Of a stretch of DNA of 64,000 bases, positions 17,133 to 46,078 are shown in pieces. The notes beneath the pieces are model-generated. The model saw nothing but the letters and a program-made list of their open reading frames with translations. It did no database searches and was not told the DNA's origin. How positions within the stretch are numbered: position 1 is the stretch's first letter; each line of letters begins with the position of its first letter. This DNA comes from a virus (Duplodnaviria > Heunggongvirae > Uroviricota > Caudoviricetes): IMG/VR virus record IMGVR_UViG_2609459826_000002. One strand, given 5' to 3'. Both the position numbers and the translations under genes were made by a program.

Positions 17133-17390
17133 CTACTGTGAGTTGCGTGACGTTTCTATCTTCCTGATACTGGCCTTGTCGATGTTGCACTGGCCCAGCG
17201 CCGAAAGCAGGCTCACATTCAGATCCAGACTGGCCCCATAGGTCAGCGGGTCGGGAATGACTGGCTGGGGCGTTTCAGTGGTCAGGCTTGTTGGCAGCGG
17301 TACCGCCGGAACCGGCACGTAAACTGTTCGCGTACTTCCGCAACCGGTCAGCAGCGGCAGCAGGCACATGACGTGAAGCACAATCATCAT
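17133..17390 (-). CDS. Rz1-like o-spanin lipoprotein (out-of-frame overlap with Rz)
   Basis: Signal peptide with lipobox LLTGC, Pro-rich mature part; overlaps 3' part of Rz-like gene in a different frame. Confidence 0.6.
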   Translation of the reverse strand: MMIVLHVMCLLPLLTGCGSTRTVYVPVPAVPLPTSLTTETPQPVIPDPLTYGASLDLNVSLLSALGQCNIDKASIRKIETSRNSQ

Positions 17391-17667
17391 CCGCAACAGC
17401 CACTTTGATATCTTCCTGGGTTCTCTGTGACTCCAGTGCGATCTGCTGTTTTGCATGCTGGTTAGCCTCTATAACTGTATTGATGATTTGCAGTGATTGC
17501 AGAACGTTACGGGTAATGGCAGTTGCTGATTCAGCATTTCGTACAGCCTCATCAGCACGCTCCTTTTCGTGCTGATATTTGCTGTAGTAATGTCCAGCAG
17601 ACCAGATGAAGGAACCAATGACGCTAACAACGAAGGCAACAATAACCAGCTTATATCTCAGCCTCAT
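17275..17667 (-). CDS. Rz-like i-spanin
   Basis: 130-aa ORF with N-terminal TM segment and coiled-coil region, downstream of endolysin. Confidence 0.65.
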   Translation of the reverse strand: MRLRYKLVIVAFVVSVIGSFIWSAGHYYSKYQHEKERADEAVRNAESATAITRNVLQSLQIINTVIEANQHAKQQIALESQRTQEDIKVAVADDDCASRHVPAAAADRLRKYANSLRAGSGGTAANKPDH

Positions 17668-18127
17668 TTACTACCCCACCAGCTTTTTTAAATCGGGCAA
17701 TCAGGTCACCGATTTTATGTTCATACTGACCGTAACCTGCACCAGGTAACGACGCCCAGATATTGCTGCAACGGTCGATTGCCTGACGAATACTGCCGCG
17801 GTCAATCATCGGTAAAGCACCACGCTCTTTAATCTGCTGCAGAGCTACAGCGTCCTGGCTTTCTGGAGAAAAATCTTTCAGTCCAAGCTGTTTACGGTAA
17901 GCATCCCACCAGCGTGAAAGAAGCTGGTAACGTCCGGCAGCTGTTGATTTGAGTTTGGGGTTTAGCGTGACAAGTTTGCGAGGGTGATCGGAGTAATCAG
18001 TGAACAGTTCGCCACCAACAATAACATCATAACCGTGGTTACGTGTCGGTTGTCGCCCGTTATCCGTTCCTTCTGACCATGCCACCATATCCAGGAAAGC
18101 TTTACGCTGGGAATTTAGTGCCTGCAT
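17651..18127 (-). CDS. Endolysin, lambda R-like lytic transglycosylase
   Basis: 158-aa ORF closely resembling lambda R (…QRKAFLDM.AWSEGTDNGRQ.TRNHGYDVIVGGELFTDYSDHPRKLVTLNPKLKST.AGRYQLLSRWWDAYRKQLGLKDF…). Confidence 0.9.
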   Translation of the reverse strand: MQALNSQRKAFLDMVAWSEGTDNGRQPTRNHGYDVIVGGELFTDYSDHPRKLVTLNPKLKSTAAGRYQLLSRWWDAYRKQLGLKDFSPESQDAVALQQIKERGALPMIDRGSIRQAIDRCSNIWASLPGAGYGQYEHKIGDLIARFKKAGGVVNEAEI

Positions 18128-18130
18128 AAA

Positions 18131-18562
18131 TTACTCCTTCGAGCTACCAAATTTGTTACCGATTACTCGCATTGCAGCCCCACGAATAGCATCGACACCG
18201 ATCAGCCCCACGCCACCACCAATGGCAACAGAAAGCGATTTAGGCCATCCGACATATTCAAGAGCGGATGCAAAGGTCAGCGTCAGAGCGCCACATAGCA
18301 AAATCTCGAGCGTTTTTCGCTTCCAGCCACCACCACCGCCAAAATAGGCGATGCGCAAACCAGCCATAACGATCGACATAATCACTGCACCCAGCGGTGT
18401 GTCTCCACGCCACCAGCTCTGAAACAACTCCAGCCAGTCCGGCCAGGTATTTGGGTTATGAGGCATTTCGTCATCTCTCACCTCGCGATATTTGCGGGTG
18501 CTGTGTTGGAAATAAAAAGGCCACGCAACGTGGCCACCAGAATTATTTCCCCACCAGTTCAC
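18131..18562 (-). CDS. Holin (lambda S-like topology); true start probably internal
   Basis: Three hydrophobic segments and charged C-terminus upstream of endolysin. Confidence 0.6.
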   Translation of the reverse strand: MNWWGNNSGGHVAWPFYFQHSTRKYREVRDDEMPHNPNTWPDWLELFQSWWRGDTPLGAVIMSIVMAGLRIAYFGGGGGWKRKTLEILLCGALTLTFASALEYVGWPKSLSVAIGGGVGLIGVDAIRGAAMRVIGNKFGSSKE

Positions 18563-19595
18563 TTACCTCTTTCACCGTCTGATTAAACCGCTCTGACTCA
18601 AGTTCAACACCTAACGCCCGACGCCCCAGCGCCATTGCTGCTTTTATTGTGGAACCGGATCCCATAAAGAAATCAGCAACCAGATCACCAGGTCGACTAC
18701 TGGCATTGATTATTTGCCGGAGCATATCCGCCGGTTTCTCGCACGGATGTTTACCCGGGTAGAACTGAACGGGCTTATGCGTCCAGACATCGGTATAAGG
18801 CACGGAGACTGATACGGAGAAATAGCGCCGGAGAGATTTAAACTCATCCAGCAATTCAGAATATTTGCGATTCAGTGAATCATAAGATGCCACCAGCTGG
18901 TGGTGTGGTTGTTCCAGTTGTTGTTCCTGAAACTTCTCTGCCGCTATACGGGAAAACAGTGCCTGTAACTTCCGATAGTCAGCCTCATTCGGCAACTGCC
19001 ACTGACTGGCACCAAACCAGTGGGAAACCATATTTTTCTTACCTGTGGCTTCGGCAATTTGTTTTGCCGTTATACCCAGTTCGGCACGAGCATCCCTGAA
19101 ATACGATATCAGCGGTGCCATTATGTGCTGTTTGAGTTCCCTTTCTTTTGCCGCATAGCCGTCACTTTTGCCGCGATATGGCCCCTGGTAATGTTCAGCA
19201 AACAGAACGCGCTCTGTGGCAGGAAAATATGCGCGCAGACTTTCTTTATTACACCCATTCCAACGTCCGGACGGCTTCGCCCAGATGATATGGTTAAGCA
19301 CGTTGAAACGTTCACGCATCATGATCTCAATATCAGATGCCAGGCGATGCCCACAGAACAGGTAAAGGCTTCCGGCAGGTTTCAACACCCGCCAGAACTG
19401 GGCCAGACAGTGGTCCAGCCACTTAAGGTAATCTTCGTCCCCTTTCCACTGATTGTCCCAACCGTTGGGTTTCACCTTGAAGTAAGGCGGATCGGTAACA
19501 ATCAGGTCAATGGAATCATCAGGCAGGGACTGAATAAAATGCAGGCAATCAGCGTTGATTAAATCAACACTGTTTATTTTTACAGTATTTTTCAT
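18543..19595 (-). CDS. DNA methyltransferase (DPPY motif, N6-adenine/N4-cytosine class)
   Basis: 350-aa ORF with IVTDPPYF motif and SAM-binding C-terminal motif FFMGSGST. Confidence 0.8.
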   Translation of the reverse strand: MKNTVKINSVDLINADCLHFIQSLPDDSIDLIVTDPPYFKVKPNGWDNQWKGDEDYLKWLDHCLAQFWRVLKPAGSLYLFCGHRLASDIEIMMRERFNVLNHIIWAKPSGRWNGCNKESLRAYFPATERVLFAEHYQGPYRGKSDGYAAKERELKQHIMAPLISYFRDARAELGITAKQIAEATGKKNMVSHWFGASQWQLPNEADYRKLQALFSRIAAEKFQEQQLEQPHHQLVASYDSLNRKYSELLDEFKSLRRYFSVSVSVPYTDVWTHKPVQFYPGKHPCEKPADMLRQIINASSRPGDLVADFFMGSGSTIKAAMALGRRALGVELESERFNQTVKEVSELVGK

Positions 19596-19744
19596 GGATC
19601 AGTAAGCGTAACTCTGGTAGGCTCACTCTGCTTTTGCGCTAAAGCAGTGGGCCGTGGTTCGCTTGTGACCAGTAGGCATGAGCGAATGGCTGGCAGGTGC
19701 TACCAACACCCACCAGCCGCCCATTTTCACAAATTAAAAGCCCT

Positions 19745-19963
19745 TCATTGCTGAAGGCGTCTGTAACAGCCGAACTGGTAATCTACCAGCCCCGCCATAA
19801 CCAGCTGGGTCAGTATTAACTGACAGCGTTCGCGTGAAAGGTATGTGTTTTGTGCAATCTCCCCGACTGTTGCCGGTTCGATGCTTAATTCATTAAAAAC
19901 AACTTTCGCCGTTTCTGTCATATCTTGCTGTTTTAGCATGTCTTTTTCCCTTCTGGTTAACAT
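19745..19963 (-). CDS. Small hypothetical phage protein
   Basis: 72-aa ORF upstream of methyltransferase in late region. Confidence 0.3.
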   Translation of the reverse strand: MLTRREKDMLKQQDMTETAKVVFNELSIEPATVGEIAQNTYLSRERCQLILTQLVMAGLVDYQFGCYRRLQQ

Positions 19964-20061
19964 GACATACCAATAACTCTTGTCTAAAAAGCCAGCAAGA
20001 TAAAAAGTCAGTATTCACGACCACCAGCGTGTTTACCGTACTGCTCTTGGTTTACAGGTAC

Positions 20062-20086
20062 AAAAAAACCGCTCGACGGCGGGTTT
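20062..20086 (-). terminator. Rho-independent terminator on minus strand (tR'-like candidate)
   Basis: rc reads AAACCCGCCGTCGAGCGGTTTTTTT: short GC stem plus T7 run. Confidence 0.5.
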
Positions 20087-20184
20087 AAGCTGTGTGGCGA
20101 AGTAACCACTCTTAACAGATTATGATAGTTTTTGCGTACGCGTTAGTAATTTATTATGCTCTTTACAATTGTTAGCTTAACCGC

Positions 20185-21351
20185 ATGGAATTGACCAAAA
20201 AAATGAGCAAAGCAAGCATACGCCACGTAATCGTTCATGAGCTCTTAAAAGAATCTAATAAAGACTTCGATCACTCCAAACCATACAATCTTCGTGATAC
20301 AGAACTAGATAAAACAAATGATATAGTAAAAAAATTAGTAGACGGTGTTATTGATTTGTATGGTTCAAAAGGGAACTCAGCGCATTATGGTGTTTTTATT
20401 AAAAATAAAACAAAGCAAGGCCCTATACCAGAACTATTTCATAAATACTCTTTAGTTCAACAATCTGTTTCAAGTGATTTCATTGAATTATCGAAGGAAG
20501 TTATGAAACAAATGTATAAATCTGCTCAAGAGCAGATTTGGGCTTCTGGAGGATATGTTGTTTTTACTGATTATATTTTATCTGGTTTCCGTTATCTATT
20601 GGTTACAATGATCAAAAAAACTAATGGCGTAACTATTAGTGAAAATTTAGAGCCAGAGGAAATGATTCACTTAGAACTTGGTAATATTAACCAAGCAGCA
20701 AAAATAAATTTCAGATATTATGAAGAATACCAAAAAGCAGATGACTTAAAAAAAACAGACTTAAGTTATCTAAGCTTTATAAGCAAAACTACGGGACAGT
20801 CAGCGGCAGCATATTTTATAGCAGCATTAGGATGTGACAAGGGGATTGCTTCAGCAGGTGCAACCCGTAAGTTACCAGATGAAATAAGGCGTTTCTTTAA
20901 GAAAGAACCTCTTTTAAAAAATCAAGCAGAGTCATTTAGAAATGATGTTATCAAATACTTAGAAAAGCAATTTGACAACGAGCACTCTGCAAGGCTTTCT
21001 GATATCGAATCGCTTGCTTCAGGCCATATGTCCGATTTAAAAGAGGAAGAAAAAACAGAACTTGTTGATAAATTAATGAAACACCTCAATAGTGAGGAAG
21101 TCAGAATCCCATCAGAGTTCGTAATCAATAAAAACTCCTTAGATAAAATCCGCAATGTGATATATAAAACCCCATCATTGAGCTTTCACTTCGACAAGGA
21201 TTTACTCGGTGTCACAACTGATGCTAAAATATATTATGATGACGAAAACCAAAGCCTAACATTTAATAATTTGCCTGTTGAAGCATTAACTAAGATAAGA
21301 AGAGCGTTGAAAGAAACTGATAACCCGAGTAATGAAGAAGATAAAGAATGA
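20185..21351 (+). CDS. NdpA/YejK-like nucleoid-associated protein homolog (cargo gene A)
   Basis: 388-aa ORF; core GGYVVFTDYILSGFRYLLVTMI...ENL...and C-terminal KIYYDDENQSLTFNNLP align by eye with E. coli YejK (recalled from memory); AT-rich; opposite strand to phage late genes. Confidence 0.65.
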   Translation: MELTKKMSKASIRHVIVHELLKESNKDFDHSKPYNLRDTELDKTNDIVKKLVDGVIDLYGSKGNSAHYGVFIKNKTKQGPIPELFHKYSLVQQSVSSDFIELSKEVMKQMYKSAQEQIWASGGYVVFTDYILSGFRYLLVTMIKKTNGVTISENLEPEEMIHLELGNINQAAKINFRYYEEYQKADDLKKTDLSYLSFISKTTGQSAAAYFIAALGCDKGIASAGATRKLPDEIRRFFKKEPLLKNQAESFRNDVIKYLEKQFDNEHSARLSDIESLASGHMSDLKEEEKTELVDKLMKHLNSEEVRIPSEFVINKNSLDKIRNVIYKTPSLSFHFDKDLLGVTTDAKIYYDDENQSLTFNNLPVEALTKIRRALKETDNPSNEEDKE

Positions 21352-22574
21352 ATGATTTTAGTATAATAGTTAATCTGTATAGATTATCAAGCTATCCTCA
21401 TTTTGACGGGGCTAAGTTTTCTGCGCGTATAGCTTATAATGCAGACGTAAAATCATTGTTCAAAAGAATTTTGAACCCTACTTTTCAAGCTGGTACAGCT
21501 GACGAAATAGAGGTGGATGGTCATTTAATTTATGATTATGAAGACTTTCCTGAAAAGGGAAATTTTCTTACATACTCGTTTAAAATTTCACAAGGAAGTG
21601 CGAATCGTTTTTATAAAAATAAAAACGAGTTTGTAAAAATAAACACGCTCAAGAAAGGCATAATGCCAGAGTATTTCTATATTATAGAGGATGATTTCTA
21701 TTCATTAGAAACACCAAAACCTTCTTATATCCAAAAAATTGAGGACATTTGTGAGCTAATCAATGCTCTTTCCATGCTTGCTCATTTCCATGATATAAAA
21801 AAAGATAGCAAAGGTACATTTTATCGTTTAGTCTTTATTTTAAACTCAGAGTCTAAATCTTCTTCTGCTGTAATTGAAACAAATATTACAGAAGAAATTT
21901 TTAATGATAAAACAGTAAATACTCAGTTAGTTAAAACATTAGTAAGTAGTGAAGCTACTACTGATGCCCATCACATTGAAAAGATTAACACTTTCAGAAA
22001 CACAGTTATTGAGTATGTTAATAAAAATGGAAATTCCTTTGTCGAGTTAATTAACAAGTGGGATTTCATATGCGAACTTTATACGAACAACTTAGCTGCT
22101 TATATGTCGGCATTTTCTTTTCATAAAGCAAGGAAAGAAGTTGTTGATGCTGAACTCGATTACTCAGAAAAACTGTCAAAAATAATTTCAGAAATTTCTA
22201 ACAAAGCTCTTGCAATACCTATTTCACTAGCTGGTTCAATTGCTATTTTCAAATTAACAACAAAAACTGATTGGATTATTGCTTTAATTGGATTGATTAT
22301 CACAGCAATAATAACATCTGCAATGATTGTGTCACAAAAAAAACAACTCGCTCGTATTTCACACTCTAAAGAAATACTTTTTGGACAATTAAGATATAGA
22401 ATAAAGGATGACACCAGCGATCTTAAAGAGAGCTTAGAAGAGGCTATTAAAAAATTAAATGACAATGAGGATTTTTGTCATAAGGTGCTTGACAGTTTAT
22501 TATCACTAGCATGGATGCCTACATTCATAGGCATCATCGGTATTTTATTTAAATTAATGCCAAATATTACTTGA
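21348..22574 (+). CDS. Hypothetical membrane-anchored protein (cargo gene B), translationally coupled to gene A
   Basis: 408-aa ORF; ATGA start/stop overlap with gene A; soluble N-terminal ~280 aa, then hydrophobic helices (ISLAGSIAIFKL...IIALIGLIITAIITSAMIV and WMPTFIGIIGILFKL). Confidence 0.6.
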   Translation: MNDFSIIVNLYRLSSYPHFDGAKFSARIAYNADVKSLFKRILNPTFQAGTADEIEVDGHLIYDYEDFPEKGNFLTYSFKISQGSANRFYKNKNEFVKINTLKKGIMPEYFYIIEDDFYSLETPKPSYIQKIEDICELINALSMLAHFHDIKKDSKGTFYRLVFILNSESKSSSAVIETNITEEIFNDKTVNTQLVKTLVSSEATTDAHHIEKINTFRNTVIEYVNKNGNSFVELINKWDFICELYTNNLAAYMSAFSFHKARKEVVDAELDYSEKLSKIISEISNKALAIPISLAGSIAIFKLTTKTDWIIALIGLIITAIITSAMIVSQKKQLARISHSKEILFGQLRYRIKDDTSDLKESLEEAIKKLNDNEDFCHKVLDSLLSLAWMPTFIGIIGILFKLMPNIT

Positions 22575-22926
22575 GCATGTACATAACCCCATTAATGAAA
22601 CCTAACGCAGTCTGCAATTGCTTCCGGATTGTTCCATCTGAGCATCTGCGTCTCTTCGCAATAGAACGCAGTGAAATACCTATAACGAAGTGAGCAATGA
22701 TCAGCTCATATTCGTCTGGTTTATACTTACACAGGCGGGCAACACAGCCGTCTATCATGATGCCTTCATCATCATCACACTGAAGGCGTATTTTTTTACC
22801 ATGAGGTAAAAGCCCCTTAAAGCCTGCTGCTATCGGCTGCCAGTCCACACCACTGTTATCTGCTGCAGCCCACGCTCCCCAGCGGTCTAAAACTTCATAC
22901 ATATCACGCATCAACTTTCTCCACAA
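22567..22926 (-). CDS. Late antiterminator Q (QuuD/phage 82 type)
   Basis: 119-aa ORF with ERWGAWAA...AGFKGL...CDDD...C..RL motif pattern resembling QuuD-like Q proteins (from memory). Confidence 0.65.
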   Translation of the reverse strand: MWRKLMRDMYEVLDRWGAWAAADNSGVDWQPIAAGFKGLLPHGKKIRLQCDDDEGIMIDGCVARLCKYKPDEYELIIAHFVIGISLRSIAKRRRCSDGTIRKQLQTALGFINGVMYMLK

Positions 22927-38306: not shown

Positions 38307-41300
38307 TTAGACTGTCCAGCTGTTCGACACCACTTCTGCCTGCTTCAAAATCAGTTCCACGGCGCCCGGCGTTTTGTCCGGCGGATACTTATACTTACGC
38401 AGCGTCTGGCGCACCAGAATACGCAATCGGGCACGCACGCTTTCACGCACCTGCCAGTCCACGGTGGTGGACTGCCGCAATTTCAATGTCACTTCGATGG
38501 CCAGCTTTCTCAGCGTATCATCGCCCAGTTCACGCACTGCACTTTCATTTTCAGCCAGCGCATCATAGAAGGCGATTTCATCCGGGGTCAGCCCCAGCGC
38601 ATCATCACGCGCCATCGCCTCCTGGAACGCTTTCGCCATCTGGATCAGCTCTTCAATCACCTGCGCGGTCTCAATGGCGCGGTTATTGTATTTGAGCAGC
38701 ACCGCTTTCAGTCGGTCGGAGTATTTCTTCTGCTGCACCACGTTATTGCCCGAACGGGCATGAATGCCGTCATTGAGCAGTTTTTCCAGCAGTTCCACTG
38801 CCAGATTACGCTGCGGCATTTCCCGCACTTCTTCCAAAAACTCATCGGACAGCAAACCTATGTTCGGTTTATCCAGCCCGGCGAGTGCGAAGACATCCTC
38901 AACCCCGGTCGCGACAACCGCGTTATCGAGGATCTTGCTCAGCAGAGAGTTTTTTTCTGACTGGCTAAACTTTGCCTTCGGATCGAGCTTGATAAGCCCC
39001 ACCCTGACCGCCGAAAGAAACGCGAACTCCTCCTGTAAGGGTTTCGCCTCATCCAGCGTATTACACAGTGACCAGGCTTTACTCATCGCCAGCGAAACAT
39101 CGAGGTAGCGTTTTTTACCGTCATCCAGCCCCAGAATATAGTTCACCGCATCGCGTAAGAACGCTAACGGGTCGCGAGAAAAACCTGCGTAACTGAAGCC
39201 GGGTTTTCCTGCCGAGGGCGCAAACATCCCATGAATAATGTCGATTTTTTCCAGCAGAATGGCAAAGGCTTCCCGGGCATCGACCGTGGACTGCCCTTTG
39301 CCTTTTGAGTCGGTATAGGTTTTCAGCGCCTGCTTCAGCTCGTTGGCAATGCCGATGTAATCGACCACCAGCCCGCCGGGCTTATCGCGGAACACGCGGT
39401 TAACACGCGCAATGGCCTGCATCAGGTTGTGGCCACGCATCGGCTTGTCGATATACATGGTGTGGCAGCACGGCGCGTCAAACCCAGTCAGCCACATATC
39501 CCGCACAATCACCAGTTTCAGCGGGTCATTTAGATCTTTAAAGCGGGCTTCCAGGCGTTTTTTGGTCTGTTTGTTGTAGATATGCGATTGCAGATGATCT
39601 TTATCTGACGCTGATCCGGTCATGATGACTTTGATCGCCCCTTGTTCAACGTCTTCACTGTGCCATTCAGGGCGTATCGCCACGATGGCATCGTACAGTT
39701 TCACGCAGATCTCGCGGCTCATGGCGACAACCATCGCCTTGCCGTTCATGGCAGTGTTACGTGTTTCAAAATGCTGAACCAGATCGGCGGCGACCTGCTG
39801 AATACGTGGCTCTGAACCGACCAGCTTTTCCAGACGGCTCCAGTCACCTTTGGTTTTCTCCTGCTGGCCGGTCTCTTCATCTTCCACCAGCTCATCCACC
39901 TGATCGGAGAGCGTTTCCAGCTCCTCATGGTTCAGGTCGAGCTTTGCCAAGCGGGATTCGTAGTAAATTGGCACCGTCGCGCCGTCATCCACCGCATCCT
40001 GAATATCGTAGATCGAGACATAATCACCGAACACGGCACGGGTATCTTTATCTTCAGACGCAATCGGTGTACCGGTAAAGCCCATAAACGACGCATTCGG
40101 TAGCGCATCGCGCATATGCTTGGCGTAGCCGTATTTATAGGCCCCGGTTTGCCGGTCCAGCGTGGCGCTCAGGCCATACTGGCTACGGTGCGCTTCATCG
40201 GAAATCACCACGATGTTGCTGCGTGAGTTAAGTGCCGGATGGCTCTGCTCGTTGTCCAGAGGCGCAAACTTTTGCACAGTGGTAAAGATAATGCCGCCGG
40301 ATTCACGGGCATTGAGCAGTTCGCGCAATTCGTCACGGTCATTAGCCTGTAACGGCGTTTGCTTGAGTAAATCCTGCGCCTGGCAAAACGTGGCATAGAG
40401 CTGCCCGTCGAGATCGTTACGATCCGTCACCACCACGATGGTCGGGTTGTTCATCTCCGCCTGTTGCAGCAGCTTTCCGGCGTAACAGCACATGGAGATA
40501 CTCTTGCCAGAGCCCTGGGTATGCCACACCACGCCTGCTTTTTTACTGCCCGGCTGGATGTTACTCCGTAATGGCAGATATTTGCCGGTAGACGCCACAA
40601 TCGTCGCCGCAACCGCTTCACGCACCGCGTGGAACTGATGGTATGCGGCAATCTTTTTGATAAGCCGTTTGCCATCGTTTTCAAACAGCACAAAGAAACG
40701 AATGTAATCGAGCAGCAGTTCGCGATTAAAGAAGCCCTGCACTACCGTTTTAAGCTGCCAGTCAAACTGCGGCTTGTCGTCTTCGTTAGCCACGGTTTTC
40801 CACGGCAGGAAACGCTCTTCATCGGCGGTCAGCGAGCCGATACGCGCATTCTGCCCGTCGCTTACCACCAGCGCTTCATTGCAGATAAACAGGTCGCTCA
40901 GTTCGTTTTTATAGGTCTGTAGCTGGTTAAACGCCGCCCAGATATCGGCACTGGCATCAATCGGGCTTTTCAGCTCAAGCACCGCCACCGGCAGGCCGTT
41001 GATATAGCCAATCACATCCGGGCGACGTACCTGTTTTATGCCCTGAATCGCCACCTGATTGACCACCATAAAGCGGTTATTGGCGGTGCGGTTAAAATCC
41101 ATCAGCAGCGCTTTATCGTGGATAACCTTGTCTTCCTGCTTGTACTCAACGGGCACACCGTCGAGCAGCAGATGATGGAAGGCTTTGTTGCTGACGACAA
41201 GATCCGGGCTTTGGGCATGGGCGATACGCAGTATCACCTCTTCCAGCACGGCAACAGGGAGATGGGGATTGATGGTTTGCAGTTGCTCCAGCATCACCGG

Positions 41301-41438
41301 GCGAAGAAACACATCATGAAAGGAAGCACGCAACGGGTTGTCGCCATCCGGCGCAATATCTGGCCCGTGCAGCACTTCCCAGCCCTGTACAGCAAACCAT
41401 TGCAGGCACTGCTGTTCTAAATCGTCTTCGCTTAGCAT
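38307..41438 (-). CDS. hsdR: Type I restriction enzyme R subunit
   Basis: 1043-aa ORF with helicase motifs; operon with hsdM/hsdS; TGATG overlap with upstream ORF. Confidence 0.9.
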
Positions 41439-42625
41439 CAGGCTTCCTCTGTCTCAGGATCGTCCGCTTCTTCCGGTACGTTGGATATCTCTTTCAACGC
41501 CATATTCAGTGGCGCAATAAAGGGATCGAGCGCTTTTTCAAACGCCGTCAGGTTAACCAGCAGCCAGTCGATCATCGCTGGCCAGTTGCTCTCATCAAGG
41601 TTGGTAGCAGGTGTGGCAAAGGAGATTCGGCAGGATTTTTTGCCTGGCAGCGGTTCCCACTTCAGCGCATGACCAAATGTCTCTTCAATCGCCGCTTTAC
41701 GCTCATACAGCCAGTTATAGGCAAAGGTGTTGCTCTCTGCCGAGGATTTGGCAATCCAGAACTCAACGCGAGTTTCTTTCTTACTAAAAATCATATTGTA
41801 AGAAAGTGCGCTGATACCCGAACCGGCACTAAGCCAGTGGTCTGTTGACGGGCTGATATTGTTGTACAGCGTGCAGGAACTGGCTTTCAGACGCTCCAGC
41901 ATTTTGGTCCAGAAAGCTTTGCGCAGCAGATGGCGGGTTTTCAGCTCGCCGCTGGTGGACTGCTCTTCGGCTTCTTTCTGCGCCATGCCGATCATGAAGG
42001 ATTCGGCTTCCGGCGTCGGGATCACCTGGCGAATATCAACGAAAACATCATCGTTGAATTTGTATGGTTTCACCTTAAAGCACTGCACACGCAGGCCAAA
42101 CTGCATCAACCATAGCGCGGTATTGGTGACCTCTTTGCGGAAGCTCGCCGCCACCATCATCACCCTCTGGGTGCGGCTCTGGTTAATTTGCACTTCATCC
42201 AGGCTTTCACACTCCAGAAACTCCGCCATCACCTCTGCCGCCGGACGGGTCTCTTCCGGTTCGTATTTATCGAGATAGAGTTGGAAGATGTCCAGAATCT
42301 GTTCTTTACGCAGATTGGCGCAGTAACCGGCGTATTTCAGCGCCTGCCACACTACGTCACGCCCGGAGTCATCGAGCTTATTTTCGATGATCACCAAATT
42401 GCGCTGTTTATCGATAGCCAGCAGGTCGAGGCGCTCTTTGGTGTCGTCAAAACCGGCGAACTCTTTCTGGATAATCAGCAGTTCATCATCGTTATCGCGG
42501 GTCAACGCCTGGGGATTTTTTGCCAGCCACTCCTGCAGGTGATAGCGCTCGGTATAACCGAGGCTGCTAAAAGACACCTCCTGCAACGAGTGCAGGCTAT
42601 TGGTTGGCATATCGACTTTATACAT
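41438..42625 (-). CDS. Uncharacterised protein embedded between hsdS and hsdR (PD-(D/E)XK-like signature, tentative)
   Basis: 395-aa ORF; ATGTATAA overlap with hsdS stop and TGATG overlap with hsdR start; candidate D...ExK motif ([16 protein letters not shown]); no Walker A motif seen. Confidence 0.6.
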
Positions 42626-44036
42626 TTTCCGCCTCGCTTACCGCCTGCTCGGCTTCCGGCAGGGTGATTTCACCGGAGAGGAGTTTGGGGAGAAGGGTGT
42701 CTCGGATATTTTTTAATAACACCGTTTGTTTTTTACGCTGAACTACCCCGTTGATTATGGTTTTACAATGATCTTCAAATTTTTTTACTAGTTTAAAATC
42801 AGGTGCTACTAACTCAATATTTTTCAGATGAGATGATGGCCTGGCAATAGAAGGAACACCTACTTGCGAGGCGTTTGATAATAATAGATGTTGTCCTGTC
42901 CGCGATCTAAAGAAATATAGCAAATAATAAGGAGATATTAGTTTTTTGTCTGCACGCAAAAAGAACTGTCGCTGAGATATAACATAACGTTCATATTCTG
43001 AAAATTCAGGAATGATTGAAACCTGCCCTATACTCCCTGCATGCGTAAAAATGATATCTTCGCTAAATACATTTGAGCTTTTCAATTTATCGGCATGTTC
43101 GAGTGTAATAAAATTATTCTCACCATCATTAAGAATAGATTCTTTTAAATGCTGCCCACTAATTATAGGAATACCTTCATCAACAAAGGTGGATACCTTA
43201 ATATTTGAACCAAATGGCCCCATTCCAATTTTACTAGTCAATTCTTCAGTTTTAACAACCGCCCATCCCTTTGGAATATCCCTCCCCTCGCTCTCCTGCA
43301 TCGCCGATGGAAACAGCTCTGCTGTGGCTTTTAATTGAGCATATTGCTCAGGGTGTTCACGCTCAAAAACCACCAACGCATCAGAATCTTTCCCGGAAAT
43401 CGCTGTCATAGCGGCAAGCATCGCGTCTTCCTGCGAACCGCCCGCTTCCAGTGCTGTGATTTTGGCTTTTACCGGTTCAAAATCGACAAACCAGCTTTTG
43501 AACAGGGCTTGCGCCATTTGTTCGAGAGTATGGTTGATTTGATGATTTAATAAAATTTTATCGTCGAATTTCTTTAAAACATCACCTGCAAATTTCCTTA
43601 ATCTTTTGTCAGGGAAATCATATTCATAATCGGCTAATGATTGCCATGCAACGCGTTGACGTCCAGAAGTTCCTTCCATTCTGGATCGAGCAAATGAACG
43701 GAATTCCCCAAGGCGTGAGAGATAATAAATATAATCACTATCGTACTCAGGCTCTTTTGCAGCTAAAACGATAAATTCCGTTGAACCAAAAGCAACCTCA
43801 CCATCCGATAAACCGGAAACAAGCGATGTTTTACCATTTTCAAGACAAGGTGTTATACGAGCAAACAAGGTGTCTTTATTTGCAAATTTTGAACCGCCAC
43901 CGGTGAAGATTTTTTCATCAACTCTATTTATATCTCTACCATTTTCGGGAAGTGCGGCCATTTCAACAAAGGCTGCACTTTCTCCTTTTTTTAGTGGGCG
44001 CTTTGGATTAAAAATAACCAAATCAGATAATTTCAT
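42618..44036 (-). CDS. hsdS: Type I restriction-modification specificity subunit
   Basis: 472-aa ORF with two target-recognition regions separated by conserved spacer; 14-bp overlap with hsdM. Confidence 0.9.
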   Translation of the reverse strand: MKLSDLVIFNPKRPLKKGESAAFVEMAALPENGRDINRVDEKIFTGGGSKFANKDTLFARITPCLENGKTSLVSGLSDGEVAFGSTEFIVLAAKEPEYDSDYIYYLSRLGEFRSFARSRMEGTSGRQRVAWQSLADYEYDFPDKRLRKFAGDVLKKFDDKILLNHQINHTLEQMAQALFKSWFVDFEPVKAKITALEAGGSQEDAMLAAMTAISGKDSDALVVFEREHPEQYAQLKATAELFPSAMQESEGRDIPKGWAVVKTEELTSKIGMGPFGSNIKVSTFVDEGIPIISGQHLKESILNDGENNFITLEHADKLKSSNVFSEDIIFTHAGSIGQVSIIPEFSEYERYVISQRQFFLRADKKLISPYYLLYFFRSRTGQHLLLSNASQVGVPSIARPSSHLKNIELVAPDFKLVKKFEDHCKTIINGVVQRKKQTVLLKNIRDTLLPKLLSGEITLPEAEQAVSEAENV

Positions 44037-45735
44037 AACCCAGCCCCCCCAGATTCGCCTTAATCTGTGCTTCCAGGTTCGCGCTCTCTTCCAACTGATC
44101 TTTCAGTTGCGCCGTCAGTCGTGCCATCTTCTCGGCAAAGGGCTCATCATCTTCGTCCTGCTCGGCAGCACCGACATAGCGACCTGGGGTCAGGACAAAG
44201 TCATTTTTCTTTATATCTTCCAGCGTTGCGGCGAAGCAGAATCCCGCTTCATCTTCATAGTCTTTATCCGTCTGCCATGAATGGAAGGTGTCGGCAATTC
44301 TGGCGATATCTTCACGGCTAAAATCACGCAACACGCGATCTTTCATATAACCAATCTGGCGCGCGTCTATAAACAGTACTTCACCTTTACGGTGTGCTTT
44401 GCCGTTGCCACCAGATTTATCTTTGGTCAGAAACCAGATGCAGGCCGGGATTTGGGTGTTGGTAAACAGTTGCCCTGGCAGCGCCACCATACATTCCACC
44501 AGATCCGCTTCAATCAGGTTGCGGCGGATTTCGCCTTCATTGTTGGTGTTGGAACTCATTGAGCCGTTCGCCAGCAGCAGAGCCATCGAACCTTTTGGCG
44601 CGAGGTGGTGGATCATGTGCTGCATCCACGCAAAGTTGGCGTTGCCCTGCGGCGGCGTACCATATTTCCAGCGCACGTCGTTTTCCAGCTTCGCGTTCCA
44701 CCACTCCTTCATGTTGAACGGCGGGGTTGCCATCACGAAGTCGGCACGCAGATCCGGGTGCTGGTCGTCCAGCAGGGTATCGGCGTTTTTGCTGCCGAAG
44801 TTAAAGTCGATACCCCGGATCGCCATATTCATCGCCGCCAGCTTCCAGGTGGTCGGGTTGGACTCTTGGCCGTAAACGGAGATATTGCGCTTCTGCTCGG
44901 CGGCGTTGTACTGCTTCTCGCCCGCGTGCTCTTCGATAAAACGGTCGCTGGAAACAAAGAACCCGCCGGAACCCATCGCCGGGTCATACACGCGCCCGTT
45001 ATACGGTTGCAGCATTTCAACAATCAGGGTGACGATACTTTTTGGCGTGTAATACTGGCCGCCCTGCTTACCTTCCGCCAGCGCGAACTGACCGAGGAAA
45101 TATTCGTACACGTGACCGAGAATATCTTTGCTCTTTAAGTTGAGCTTCTCGCCGTTATATTCCGGGTTGCTGAAGTTGGCGTCAGAGAAAGTATTAATCA
45201 GCCCGGTCAACACTTCGTTGCCCAATTGATACTGGCTGATACGGTTCAGAATACCTTTCAGCTTCGGGTTGGTTTTTTCGATTTCATCGAGCGCGTTATC
45301 CACCAGCCAGGACACAGAGCGCAGCGTCACATCCTTGCCGGTGGTTTCATCCACCCACAGCACGGTGCCGGTCGGCAACATGGCTTTGTTTTTCAGCGTG
45401 TCCCAGCGCGCGGCTTTCGGCACCCAGAAGATGTTCTTTTCGGTGTAGTAATCTTCCACCTCCAGTTCATCCACAATCGCCTGTGCGTACTCTTCATCAG
45501 AGTCGTAACCGTCGCGCGACATGGCATAGATGTTGTCCGGGTTGCCGACATCGCGGAACAAGGTGATTAGCTCCTGCTGACGCGCCTCGAAGGCATCGGA
45601 CACATACTTGAGGAAGATAAGCCCCAGCACCACGTGCTTGTAGTTGGCGGCATCCATGTTGGCGCGTAGCTTGTCGGCGGCTTTCCAGAATTTGTTATCC
45701 AGCTCGTTCAGGAACTGTTGTTCGGCGTTGTTCAT
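44023..45735 (-). CDS. hsdM: Type I restriction-modification methyltransferase subunit
   Basis: Start taken at MNNAEQQF with GAGGA RBS; NPPF motif (MATPPFNMKEW) and SAM-binding motif. Confidence 0.9.
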   Translation of the reverse strand: MNNAEQQFLNELDNKFWKAADKLRANMDAANYKHVVLGLIFLKYVSDAFEARQQELITLFRDVGNPDNIYAMSRDGYDSDEEYAQAIVDELEVEDYYTEKNIFWVPKAARWDTLKNKAMLPTGTVLWVDETTGKDVTLRSVSWLVDNALDEIEKTNPKLKGILNRISQYQLGNEVLTGLINTFSDANFSNPEYNGEKLNLKSKDILGHVYEYFLGQFALAEGKQGGQYYTPKSIVTLIVEMLQPYNGRVYDPAMGSGGFFVSSDRFIEEHAGEKQYNAAEQKRNISVYGQESNPTTWKLAAMNMAIRGIDFNFGSKNADTLLDDQHPDLRADFVMATPPFNMKEWWNAKLENDVRWKYGTPPQGNANFAWMQHMIHHLAPKGSMALLLANGSMSSNTNNEGEIRRNLIEADLVECMVALPGQLFTNTQIPACIWFLTKDKSGGNGKAHRKGEVLFIDARQIGYMKDRVLRDFSREDIARIADTFHSWQTDKDYEDEAGFCFAATLEDIKKNDFVLTPGRYVGAAEQDEDDEPFAEKMARLTAQLKDQLEESANLEAQIKANLGGLGYEII

Positions 45736-46078
45736 GAAAATCCTCAGGGGCGATCGCAGCGATAGTGCAAACATGCCTATCTTAAATTGGGTTTTGGAAT
45801 GCTAATCGCAAAATGATACCCGGAATGACTAGGTTCATAAACGAGATAGCGCAAAGAAGTGGAAGATGGGCTATGGCTAAGTTGACATTAAGTTCCGGGC
45901 CTCAAGCAGACGTCTCAACGTTGTCTCGCGAATATGCCAAATTATTCCGCAGCAGATGCTCAGCCCTACGGATTGACAGTCTATATTACTCTCCAAACAG
46001 TCTTCATTTACCTTCGGTTTTACGATACATGTCTGGTCGGTTGATCTGCCAGACAAAGTCTGGTCGGTTCAACGGGAG

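Follow-up and report, generated by a model that had tools for sequence, protein, structure and literature searches.

A divergent relative of the DS-1 anti-phage gene pair beside the Q antiterminator gene of an Escherichia coli lambdoid prophage

A stretch of 64,000 nucleotides from a caudoviricete record (IMG/VR IMGVR_UViG_2609459826_000002), referred to throughout as the window, contains a cassette of two overlapping genes, here named gene A and gene B, in an Escherichia coli lambdoid prophage, with the Q antiterminator gene on one side and the lysis genes on the other. Gene A encodes a protein with the fold of the nucleoid-associated protein (NAP) YejK/NdpA, gene B encodes a membrane-anchored partner, and both are homologous to the two proteins of DS-1, an experimentally validated anti-phage system. 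By analogy with DS-1 and with type II PANGU, a second system built on a YejK-like NAP, the cassette is likely an abortive-infection module that the prophage expresses in the lysogen, as a divergent allele of the DS-1/type II PANGU kind; we hold the mechanistic details less firmly than the function. An earlier note, prepared from the letters of the window and a list of their open reading frames (ORFs), had guessed at a nucleoid-type sensor joined to a membrane effector and carried beside Q as abortive-infection cargo, and homology to two experimentally characterized systems now supports that guess.

Homology to DS-1 and architecture of type II PANGU

The DefensePredictor study (DeWeirdt, Mahoney and Laub, Science 2026; PMC13092281) describes DS-1 as system D390, which pairs WP_000355468.1 (391 amino acids (aa), a YejK domain preceded by a zinc ribbon at the N-terminus) with WP_000150292.1 (404 aa); the two are referred to below as DS-1A and DS-1B. 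Carried on a low-copy plasmid under its native promoter, DS-1 lowered the plating of several phages, with negative log efficiencies of plating of 7.6 for Bas1, 2.7 for Bas26, 1.7 for both Bas3 and T3, and 1.0 for T5 (Table S7), in addition to small plaques for T7 and SECphi27 (PMC13092281). The two proteins are represented in NCBIfam by the models NF053868 (DS1_1_antiphage, "nucleoid-associated anti-phage protein", cut-off 330 bits) and NF053869 (DS1_2_antiphage, cut-off 315 bits).

Searches with these models matched gene A to DS1_1_antiphage at 99.1 bits (E 2.6e-28, residues 64-360) and gene B to DS1_2_antiphage at 100 bits (E 1.5e-28, residues 86-397), neither of which reached the respective equivalog cut-off. 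Direct BLASTP comparisons gave 24% identity over 224 aa between gene A and DS-1A and 22% identity over 223 aa between gene B and DS-1B, each with an E value of 8e-11. With profile-profile alignment of the B family against the DS-1B family (hhalign), 310 columns were matched, starting at residue 83 and running through to the C-terminus with all hydrophobic segments included, at a probability of 99.2% and an E value of 1e-19. Judged by these scores, A and B are homologs and not equivalogs of the DS-1 proteins, in a relationship that is distant but clear. DS-1A differs at its N-terminus in having about 40 extra residues with a CxxC...CxxC arrangement and a NinF-like match. Gene B (WP_016159279.1) had itself been listed as a "predicted novel defense gene" with a log-odds score of 13.05 in Table S10 of the DefensePredictor study, where it and DS-1B fall in different protein clusters (PMC13092281).

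A second body of evidence comes from PANGU systems, which were found through their linkage to defense islands and pair a YejK-like NAP with an effector; in type II these are Pag2A and Pag2B, the latter composed of an acidic "DNA-mimic" N-terminal domain ("DMK") that binds the NAP and a C-terminal transmembrane (TM) domain (bioRxiv 10.64898/2026.04.06.716658). The E. coli type II PANGU requires both genes, is toxic neither as single genes nor as a pair, and protects against T4 by 3-4 logs, with an abortive-infection-like phenotype of growth arrest at high multiplicity of infection (bioRxiv 10.64898/2026.04.06.716658). In the same study, Pag2A-GFP was located on the nucleoid and turned diffuse on T4 infection, and the isolated N-terminal domain of Pag2B bound Pag2A with a dissociation constant (KD) of 19 nM (bioRxiv 10.64898/2026.04.06.716658). 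The remark in the earlier note that the pairing was not recognized from any named anti-phage system is thus out of date, as the cassette is a divergent relative of DS-1 (NF053868/NF053869) with the architecture of type II PANGU, and at the level of the family the pair does match a described defense function.

The gene A and gene B proteins

Residues 16-364 of gene A match the Pfam family NA37 (PF04245) with an E value of 2.3e-50, and the protein aligns end to end with the YejK structure PDB 9be2 (E 4.6e-15), bearing out a likeness to YejK/NdpA along the whole length that had first been seen by eye. Since it scored 134 bits against the NCBIfam YejK equivalog NF001557, under the 341-bit cut-off of that model, the gene A product is by this measure not the housekeeping YejK.

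Gene B begins with a soluble N-terminal domain that was modeled with confidence (predicted local distance difference test score, pLDDT, of 90). It had been described beforehand as a soluble domain of about 280 aa with no recognizable motif, followed by two TM helices; the first part of that description stands, and the second is replaced by three hydrophobic segments, at residues 288-303, 309-328 and 384-405. The first two form a hairpin with Kyte-Doolittle 19-residue means of 1.6 and 2.76, in a region where the AlphaFold2 (AF2) model places helices at 289-302 and 306-351, and its counterpart in the alignment with DS-1B is likewise a hydrophobic hairpin. The C-terminal segment has a Kyte-Doolittle mean of up to 1.94 and an AF2 helix at 390-403, and in the alignment with the DS-1B family it falls on a hydrophobic segment that is C-terminal there too.

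Gene B matches phrog_5023. A Pfam search with gene B returned noise only, a PDB sequence search with the gene B profile gave no match, and no known fold was recognized for the soluble domain. When the complete B model was compared by structure, generic helical bundles were returned, and the resemblances to CorA and ClyA were dropped as non-specific.

Within the B subfamily, several residues are invariant, namely AHFHD (region of aa 146-149), H208 and FRNT..E (aa 216-222, including R217 and E222), together with the helix NNLAxYMSAFSFHKARKE (aa 247-264) just ahead of the TM hairpin. Most of the invariant residues are not kept in DS-1B, and they may form an interface with the cognate A protein. 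An enzymatic role for B through a catalytic His/Asp motif was considered and dropped because AHFHD, H208, R217 and E222, invariant as they are in the subfamily, are not conserved in DS-1B.

Conservation and pairing of the two genes

The B subfamily comprises about 60-66 clusters at 90% identity. Most of these are enterobacterial (Enterobacterales, identities of 38-100%), and a branch of 434-aa proteins at about 31% identity contains metagenome sequences and a protein of Stutzerimonas stutzeri. All contexts examined have an NA37 gene immediately upstream of B on the same strand, and in the IMG/VR scan gene A was found directly upstream of B in 45 of the 46 informative loci. The divergences of A and B are correlated (r = 0.98 for 21 pairs, which are phylogenetically non-independent), with A always the more conserved of the two. 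All of the enterobacterial copies are AT-rich, with a G+C content of 0.32-0.34 compared to 0.50-0.57 in their flanks. At two loci (L049, 2868-3494; L010, 3862-4941), gene A is apparently truncated or frameshifted beside an intact B, and these may be decaying copies.

Position of the cassette within the prophage

The coordinates of the cassette and of the features that adjoin it are given in Table 1. The longest ORF for gene A in the ORF list runs from 20185 to 21351 (388 aa), and the ATG at 20203 is favored over the start at 20185 by the RefSeq annotation and by the N-termini of five homologs, which share the pattern M-x-x-x-S/T-I-x-H-V-I-V-H-E-L. The stop codon of A and the start codon of B overlap as ATGA (junction sequence GAATGAATG). 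Gene A has a G+C content of 0.335 and gene B one of 0.306, whereas the window as a whole stands at 0.513 and the adjoining 10 kb on either side at 0.50-0.53. The ORF list and RefSeq place all flanking genes of the cassette on the - strand; a Q-family antiterminator, DUF968, KilA-N and RusA genes lie on one side and, on the other (17133-19963), a 72-aa ORF and a DNA methyltransferase gene, then holin, lysozyme and spanin genes. An orientation opposite to the late operon and a high AT content are both as expected for cargo expressed in the lysogen. Much of this had been reported in the earlier note, and the analysis confirmed the two coupled ORFs opposite the late operon (20185..21351 and 21348..22574, with the ATGA overlap) and their location between the Q gene and the lysis cassette (ORF list and RefSeq neighbors), while the AT-richness estimated there by eye (about 30% G+C vs. 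about 50%) was computed as 31-34% vs. 51% for the window.

The cassette sequence is present in 30 of 5,426 complete E. coli genomes, and the region is 100% identical in a prophage of E. coli strain YF-1. In E. coli 268.2 (NZ_CP059947.1) the cassette is split by IS1, the match covering 3,478 bases for a query of 2,701 bases with an IS1 transposase annotated inside it.

Table 1. Coordinates of the cassette, of segments of the gene B protein and of adjoining features in the window
Feature	Position	Strand	Length or residues	Description and basis
Gene A	20203..21351	+	382 aa	YejK/NdpA-fold nucleoid-associated protein; Pag2A/DS-1A-like putative sensor; RefSeq WP_227912851.1
Gene B	21348..22574	+	408 aa	Membrane-anchored partner; Pag2B/DS-1B-like putative effector; WP_016159279.1
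Soluble N-terminal region of B	21348..22202	+	aa 1-285	Alpha/beta domain (aa 1-180), then helical part ending in a long helix (aa 238-286)
Transmembrane hairpin of B	22209..22331	+	aa 288-303 and 309-328	Kyte-Doolittle, AF2 helices and DS-1B alignment
C-terminal hydrophobic helix of B	22497..22562	+	aa 384-405	Kyte-Doolittle, AF2 helix and DS-1B-family alignment
Q-family late antiterminator gene	22567..22911/22926	-		RefSeq "antiterminator Q family protein"; convergent with B, 8-nt overlap (22567-22574)
Conserved non-coding block	20085 to about 20156-20166	-	about 70 nt	Follows the Q stop codon directly in cassette-less relatives
Intrinsic terminator hairpin and T7 run	20062..20087	- (late strand)		Candidate tR'; terminator scan and sequence; conserved in empty-site phages

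Homologous cassettes were then surveyed for a position adjacent to Q, a check proposed in the earlier note. In 47 of 47 viral-contig loci from IMG/VR, the gene directly downstream of B is a Q-family gene (PF06530-type) on the opposite strand, with gaps of -8 to +83 nt, an arrangement shared by Klebsiella phage P7641 and by prophages of Pectobacterium and Edwardsiella. This Q-adjacent slot is also where DS-1-type alleles are located in prophages of Klebsiella and Pseudescherichia. A Salmonella prophage is an exception, with an antiterminator of the PF03589 family about 2 kb further off, and a more distant Serratia copy adjoins a BstA-family gene instead of Q. The identity of Q alleles is decoupled from that of the cassette (B 37% and Q 81% at one locus, B 64% and Q 56% at another), which indicates, from these sequence comparisons, exchange of cassette alleles at a fixed site.

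Relatives without the cassette, including an Stx2 prophage, define the point of insertion. In these genomes Q is followed by about 220 nt of non-coding sequence and then by the same small ORF and methyltransferase gene. Positions 19501-20166 of the window align with the region downstream of Q in E. coli A8 and in the Stx2 prophage, up to their Q stop codon, and homology to cassette-less prophages returns only at 22691, within Q. The segment thereby separated from Q contains the late-strand terminator, a strong one, and the conserved block of about 70 nt. The conserved block just upstream of gene A was found in 37 of the 47 viral loci and in five others, including DS-1-type ones, with up to 95% identity where B is only 39% identical, and the block and terminator together (20062-20166) are more conserved than the flanking genes. 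A promoter scan of the - strand gave no convincing match to the PR' consensus, and an Rfam search and RNA folding of the intergenic block found only the terminator hairpin. In lambda, H-19B and 933W, PR', the Q-utilization site (qut) and tR' directly follow Q, and because of this synteny, together with the conservation of the block, the block is probably the target of Q, i.e., the PR'/qut-tR' region of this Q family. The cassette would then be wedged between Q and its target.

In the related Stx2 prophage, the late strand carries stx only past the tRNA and methyltransferase genes, some 1.7 kb farther downstream, and the analogy with a "stx site" is therefore only approximate. The earlier placement of the cassette in a Q-proximal cargo site is retained, as the cassette abuts the Q stop codon; its equation with the moron site of stx and nmpC holds only approximately, as the cassette lies outside the stx slot, upstream (in the direction of the late strand) of the conserved block and terminator.

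The methyltransferase gene (18543-19595, - strand), of site-specific DNA type, lies on the late strand between the cassette and the holin gene, and in the related Stx2 prophage (L006) this same gene comes ahead of the tRNAs and stx2. In related prophages, the interval between cassette and lysis genes holds other cargo: toxin-antitoxin pairs of the HicAB and RelB/ParE types in Salmonella and Pseudescherichia (L007/L008, 2113-3643; L062, 2920-3557) and an Endonuclease_NS gene in Pectobacterium (L003, 3689-4552). The region bounded by Q and the lysis genes thus resembles a zone for more than one cargo.

Proposed mode of action and alternative explanations

As an abortive-infection module, the cassette would act as follows. 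The gene A protein would be bound to the host nucleoid and would be released once the chromosome is broken down by an infecting lytic phage. Freed A would bind the cytoplasmic N-terminal domain of B, itself held in the inner membrane by its helical hairpin and C-terminal helix, and the A-B complex would damage or depolarize the membrane, such that phage production stops and the infected cell is lost. The folds, the architecture, the homology of both genes to DS-1, their pairing and co-divergence and the prophage slot are properties of the cassette itself. By analogy with its homologs, the pair would be active against phages, would need both genes and would not be toxic as single genes, and its NAP would relocalize on T4 infection and bind the effector with nanomolar affinity. 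We infer further that this particular allele is active, which phages it would target, and that membrane damage is its output.

Several observations count against this interpretation. The Table S10 entry for gene B is a prediction only, with the validation covering DS-1 itself (PMC13092281). The model scores of A and B lie far under the NCBIfam equivalog cut-offs, at about one third of them, and identity to the DS-1 proteins is only 22-24%. The first approximately 80 residues of B are unaligned with DS-1B, and gene A is without the N-terminal zinc ribbon of DS-1A, its NA37 domain beginning at residue ~10. The N-terminal region of B is only mildly acidic (net charge -8, isoelectric point 5.5, both for the sequence). 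PADLOC v2.0, run on the locus, matched neither A nor B, with a library that predates DS-1 and PANGU, and a promoter scan gave no clear sigma-70 match on the + strand upstream of gene A. In addition, PANGU is a preprint, compared here by the description of its architecture and not by sequence, and its authors leave open how Pag2B is activated and acts (bioRxiv 10.64898/2026.04.06.716658).

Among other explanations, a reversal of the two roles as in Kiwa is improbable but the best of them. Here, B would sense attachment or DNA injection at the envelope and free or activate A, which would block phage DNA replication or transcription, and the outcome would be direct immunity or superinfection exclusion and not cell suicide. 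The composition of the pair suits such a scheme, A being a DNA-binding component and B being membrane-anchored with a large cytoplasmic domain. DS-1 acts on the siphophages Bas1, Bas3 and Bas26 as well as on T7 and T3, a spectrum that does not obviously fit the sensing of genome degradation. These three siphophages are not known to degrade host DNA. The PANGU authors also leave open how Pag2A and Pag2B engage and how Pag2B acts (bioRxiv 10.64898/2026.04.06.716658). However, type II PANGU is abortive-infection-like, with Pag2A leaving the nucleoid for the cytoplasm on infection, and no similarity of the cassette to KwaA, KwaB or a PADLOC model was found.

A role in the housekeeping of the prophage is less probable still. 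In such a role, A would serve as a xenogeneic nucleoid protein for tuning prophage or host transcription, B as an accessory membrane protein, and the adjacency to Q would be a form of lytic-switch control. Many temperate phages and integrative and conjugative elements (ICEs) carry YejK/NdpA homologs, and NdpA2 reportedly tunes transcription for the ICE PAPI-1; moreover, the cassette is tied to Q in 47/47 loci, in convergent orientation and with no room for a terminator. Against this, homologous pairs carried by themselves on a plasmid make MG1655 phage-resistant, with no prophage present. Many close prophages, including Stx2 phages, are without the cassette and retain an intact Q-PR' region, which makes the cassette dispensable cargo. 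The rapid divergence of B and the shuffling of cassette alleles relative to Q alleles fit an arms-race pattern.

Finally, it is very improbable that the cassette is a toxin-antitoxin or addiction module or a holin-like lysis-timing accessory of the adjacent lysis cassette, since the short, holin-like TM helices of B, its weak PHROG holin match (E 0.098) and the presence of HicAB or RelBE beside the cassette at some loci are set against a strand opposite to that of the lysis genes, the non-toxicity of type II PANGU genes alone or as a pair, the protection conferred by homologous pairs from plasmids alone, the many sister prophages without the cassette, and the build of B, whose 408 aa and large, conserved cytoplasmic domain are unlike those of holins.

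Separate from what the cassette does is the possibility, which we regard as unlikely, that it is wired into the late switch of the prophage and is not free-floating cargo. No + strand terminator was detected between B and Q in the window, and as these two genes converge, the transcripts of each would run antisense into the other. Transcription of the cassette in the lysogen would therefore be antisense into Q, and with the same convergent layout, early rightward transcription on induction would be antisense through B and A. If such a switch exists, the lysogen would have its defense on and Q damped, and a prophage in the lytic state would have its abortive-infection module off; the Q/PR' flanks could also act as a recombination scaffold for swaps of defense alleles.

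Additional features of the window

Beyond the prophage integrase, positions 33543-45774 contain a second integrase-like ORF followed by an island in which a type I restriction-modification system occupies 38307-45774 (R, DUF4268, S and M genes). In the best-matching genome (58% query coverage, 92% identity), the island contains a UvrD-helicase-domain gene and a Zorya type I system adjoins it. A 507-aa reverse transcriptase ORF at 57071-58594 (+ strand) matches a PADLOC RT model with an E value of 2e-70; because homing-endonuclease-type models also match, it is probably a group II intron reverse transcriptase and not a defense reverse transcriptase.

Significance and comparison with known systems

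The kind of system described here is already known from two reports of 2025-26 and from NCBIfam models, and the cassette is a divergent member of it that had been flagged computationally before. What looks to be new is the strict placement in the gap between Q and PR', which is common to both allelic subfamilies; this placement was not found in the text of the DS-1 paper (PMC13092281) or in the main text of the PANGU preprint. The newly described class of immunity in which NAPs stand guard over the integrity of the genome would, with this cassette, gain a second allele, one that is strongly divergent and carried by lambdoid prophages across Enterobacterales. With two alleles of 22-24% identity in one and the same slot, their comparison could pick out the essential residues of the membrane module and of the interface between NAP and effector. 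The Q-adjacent position would be a specific exchange site for defense alleles in lambdoid phages, near to but distinct from the stx locus, and bears on how prophages protect their hosts and swap cargo near the late promoter.

Kiwa, which consists of the membrane protein KwaA and the DNA-binding protein KwaB, is likewise a two-gene system in which a membrane protein is paired with a DNA-binding protein. The cassette differs from it in that the DNA-binding gene comes first, and no similarity to Kiwa was found, in that neither A nor B had a meaningful PADLOC model score and A had no DUF4868 match. With chromosomal YejK/NdpA (NF001557; PDB 9be2), gene A has the fold in common over its whole length, whereas the housekeeping gene is solitary and gene A sits in AT-rich prophage cargo, translationally coupled to a membrane-protein gene.

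Type II PANGU is close in its organization, as it too is bicistronic in E. coli, the gene for a YejK-like NAP preceding that for an effector composed of a soluble N-terminal domain and a C-terminal TM domain. Its proposed logic is that of a nucleoid-bound sensor, freed when the phage causes genome degradation, that binds a membrane effector and brings about abortive infection. The main text describing it does not contain the word "prophage", and the N-terminal region of B is by sequence mildly acidic only. DS-1 is a further close system, for which phage resistance has been shown, with no published mechanism, whereas activity of the present cassette is predicted. In both, a YejK-fold NAP gene comes first and is followed by a partner of about 400 aa whose hydrophobic parts are a hairpin and a helix at the C-terminus; the gene sizes agree (382/388 and 408 aa here vs. 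391 and 404 aa in DS-1), both cassettes are AT-rich, both proteins are homologous, and DS-1-type alleles share the same convergent slot adjacent to Q in lambdoid prophages of Enterobacterales.

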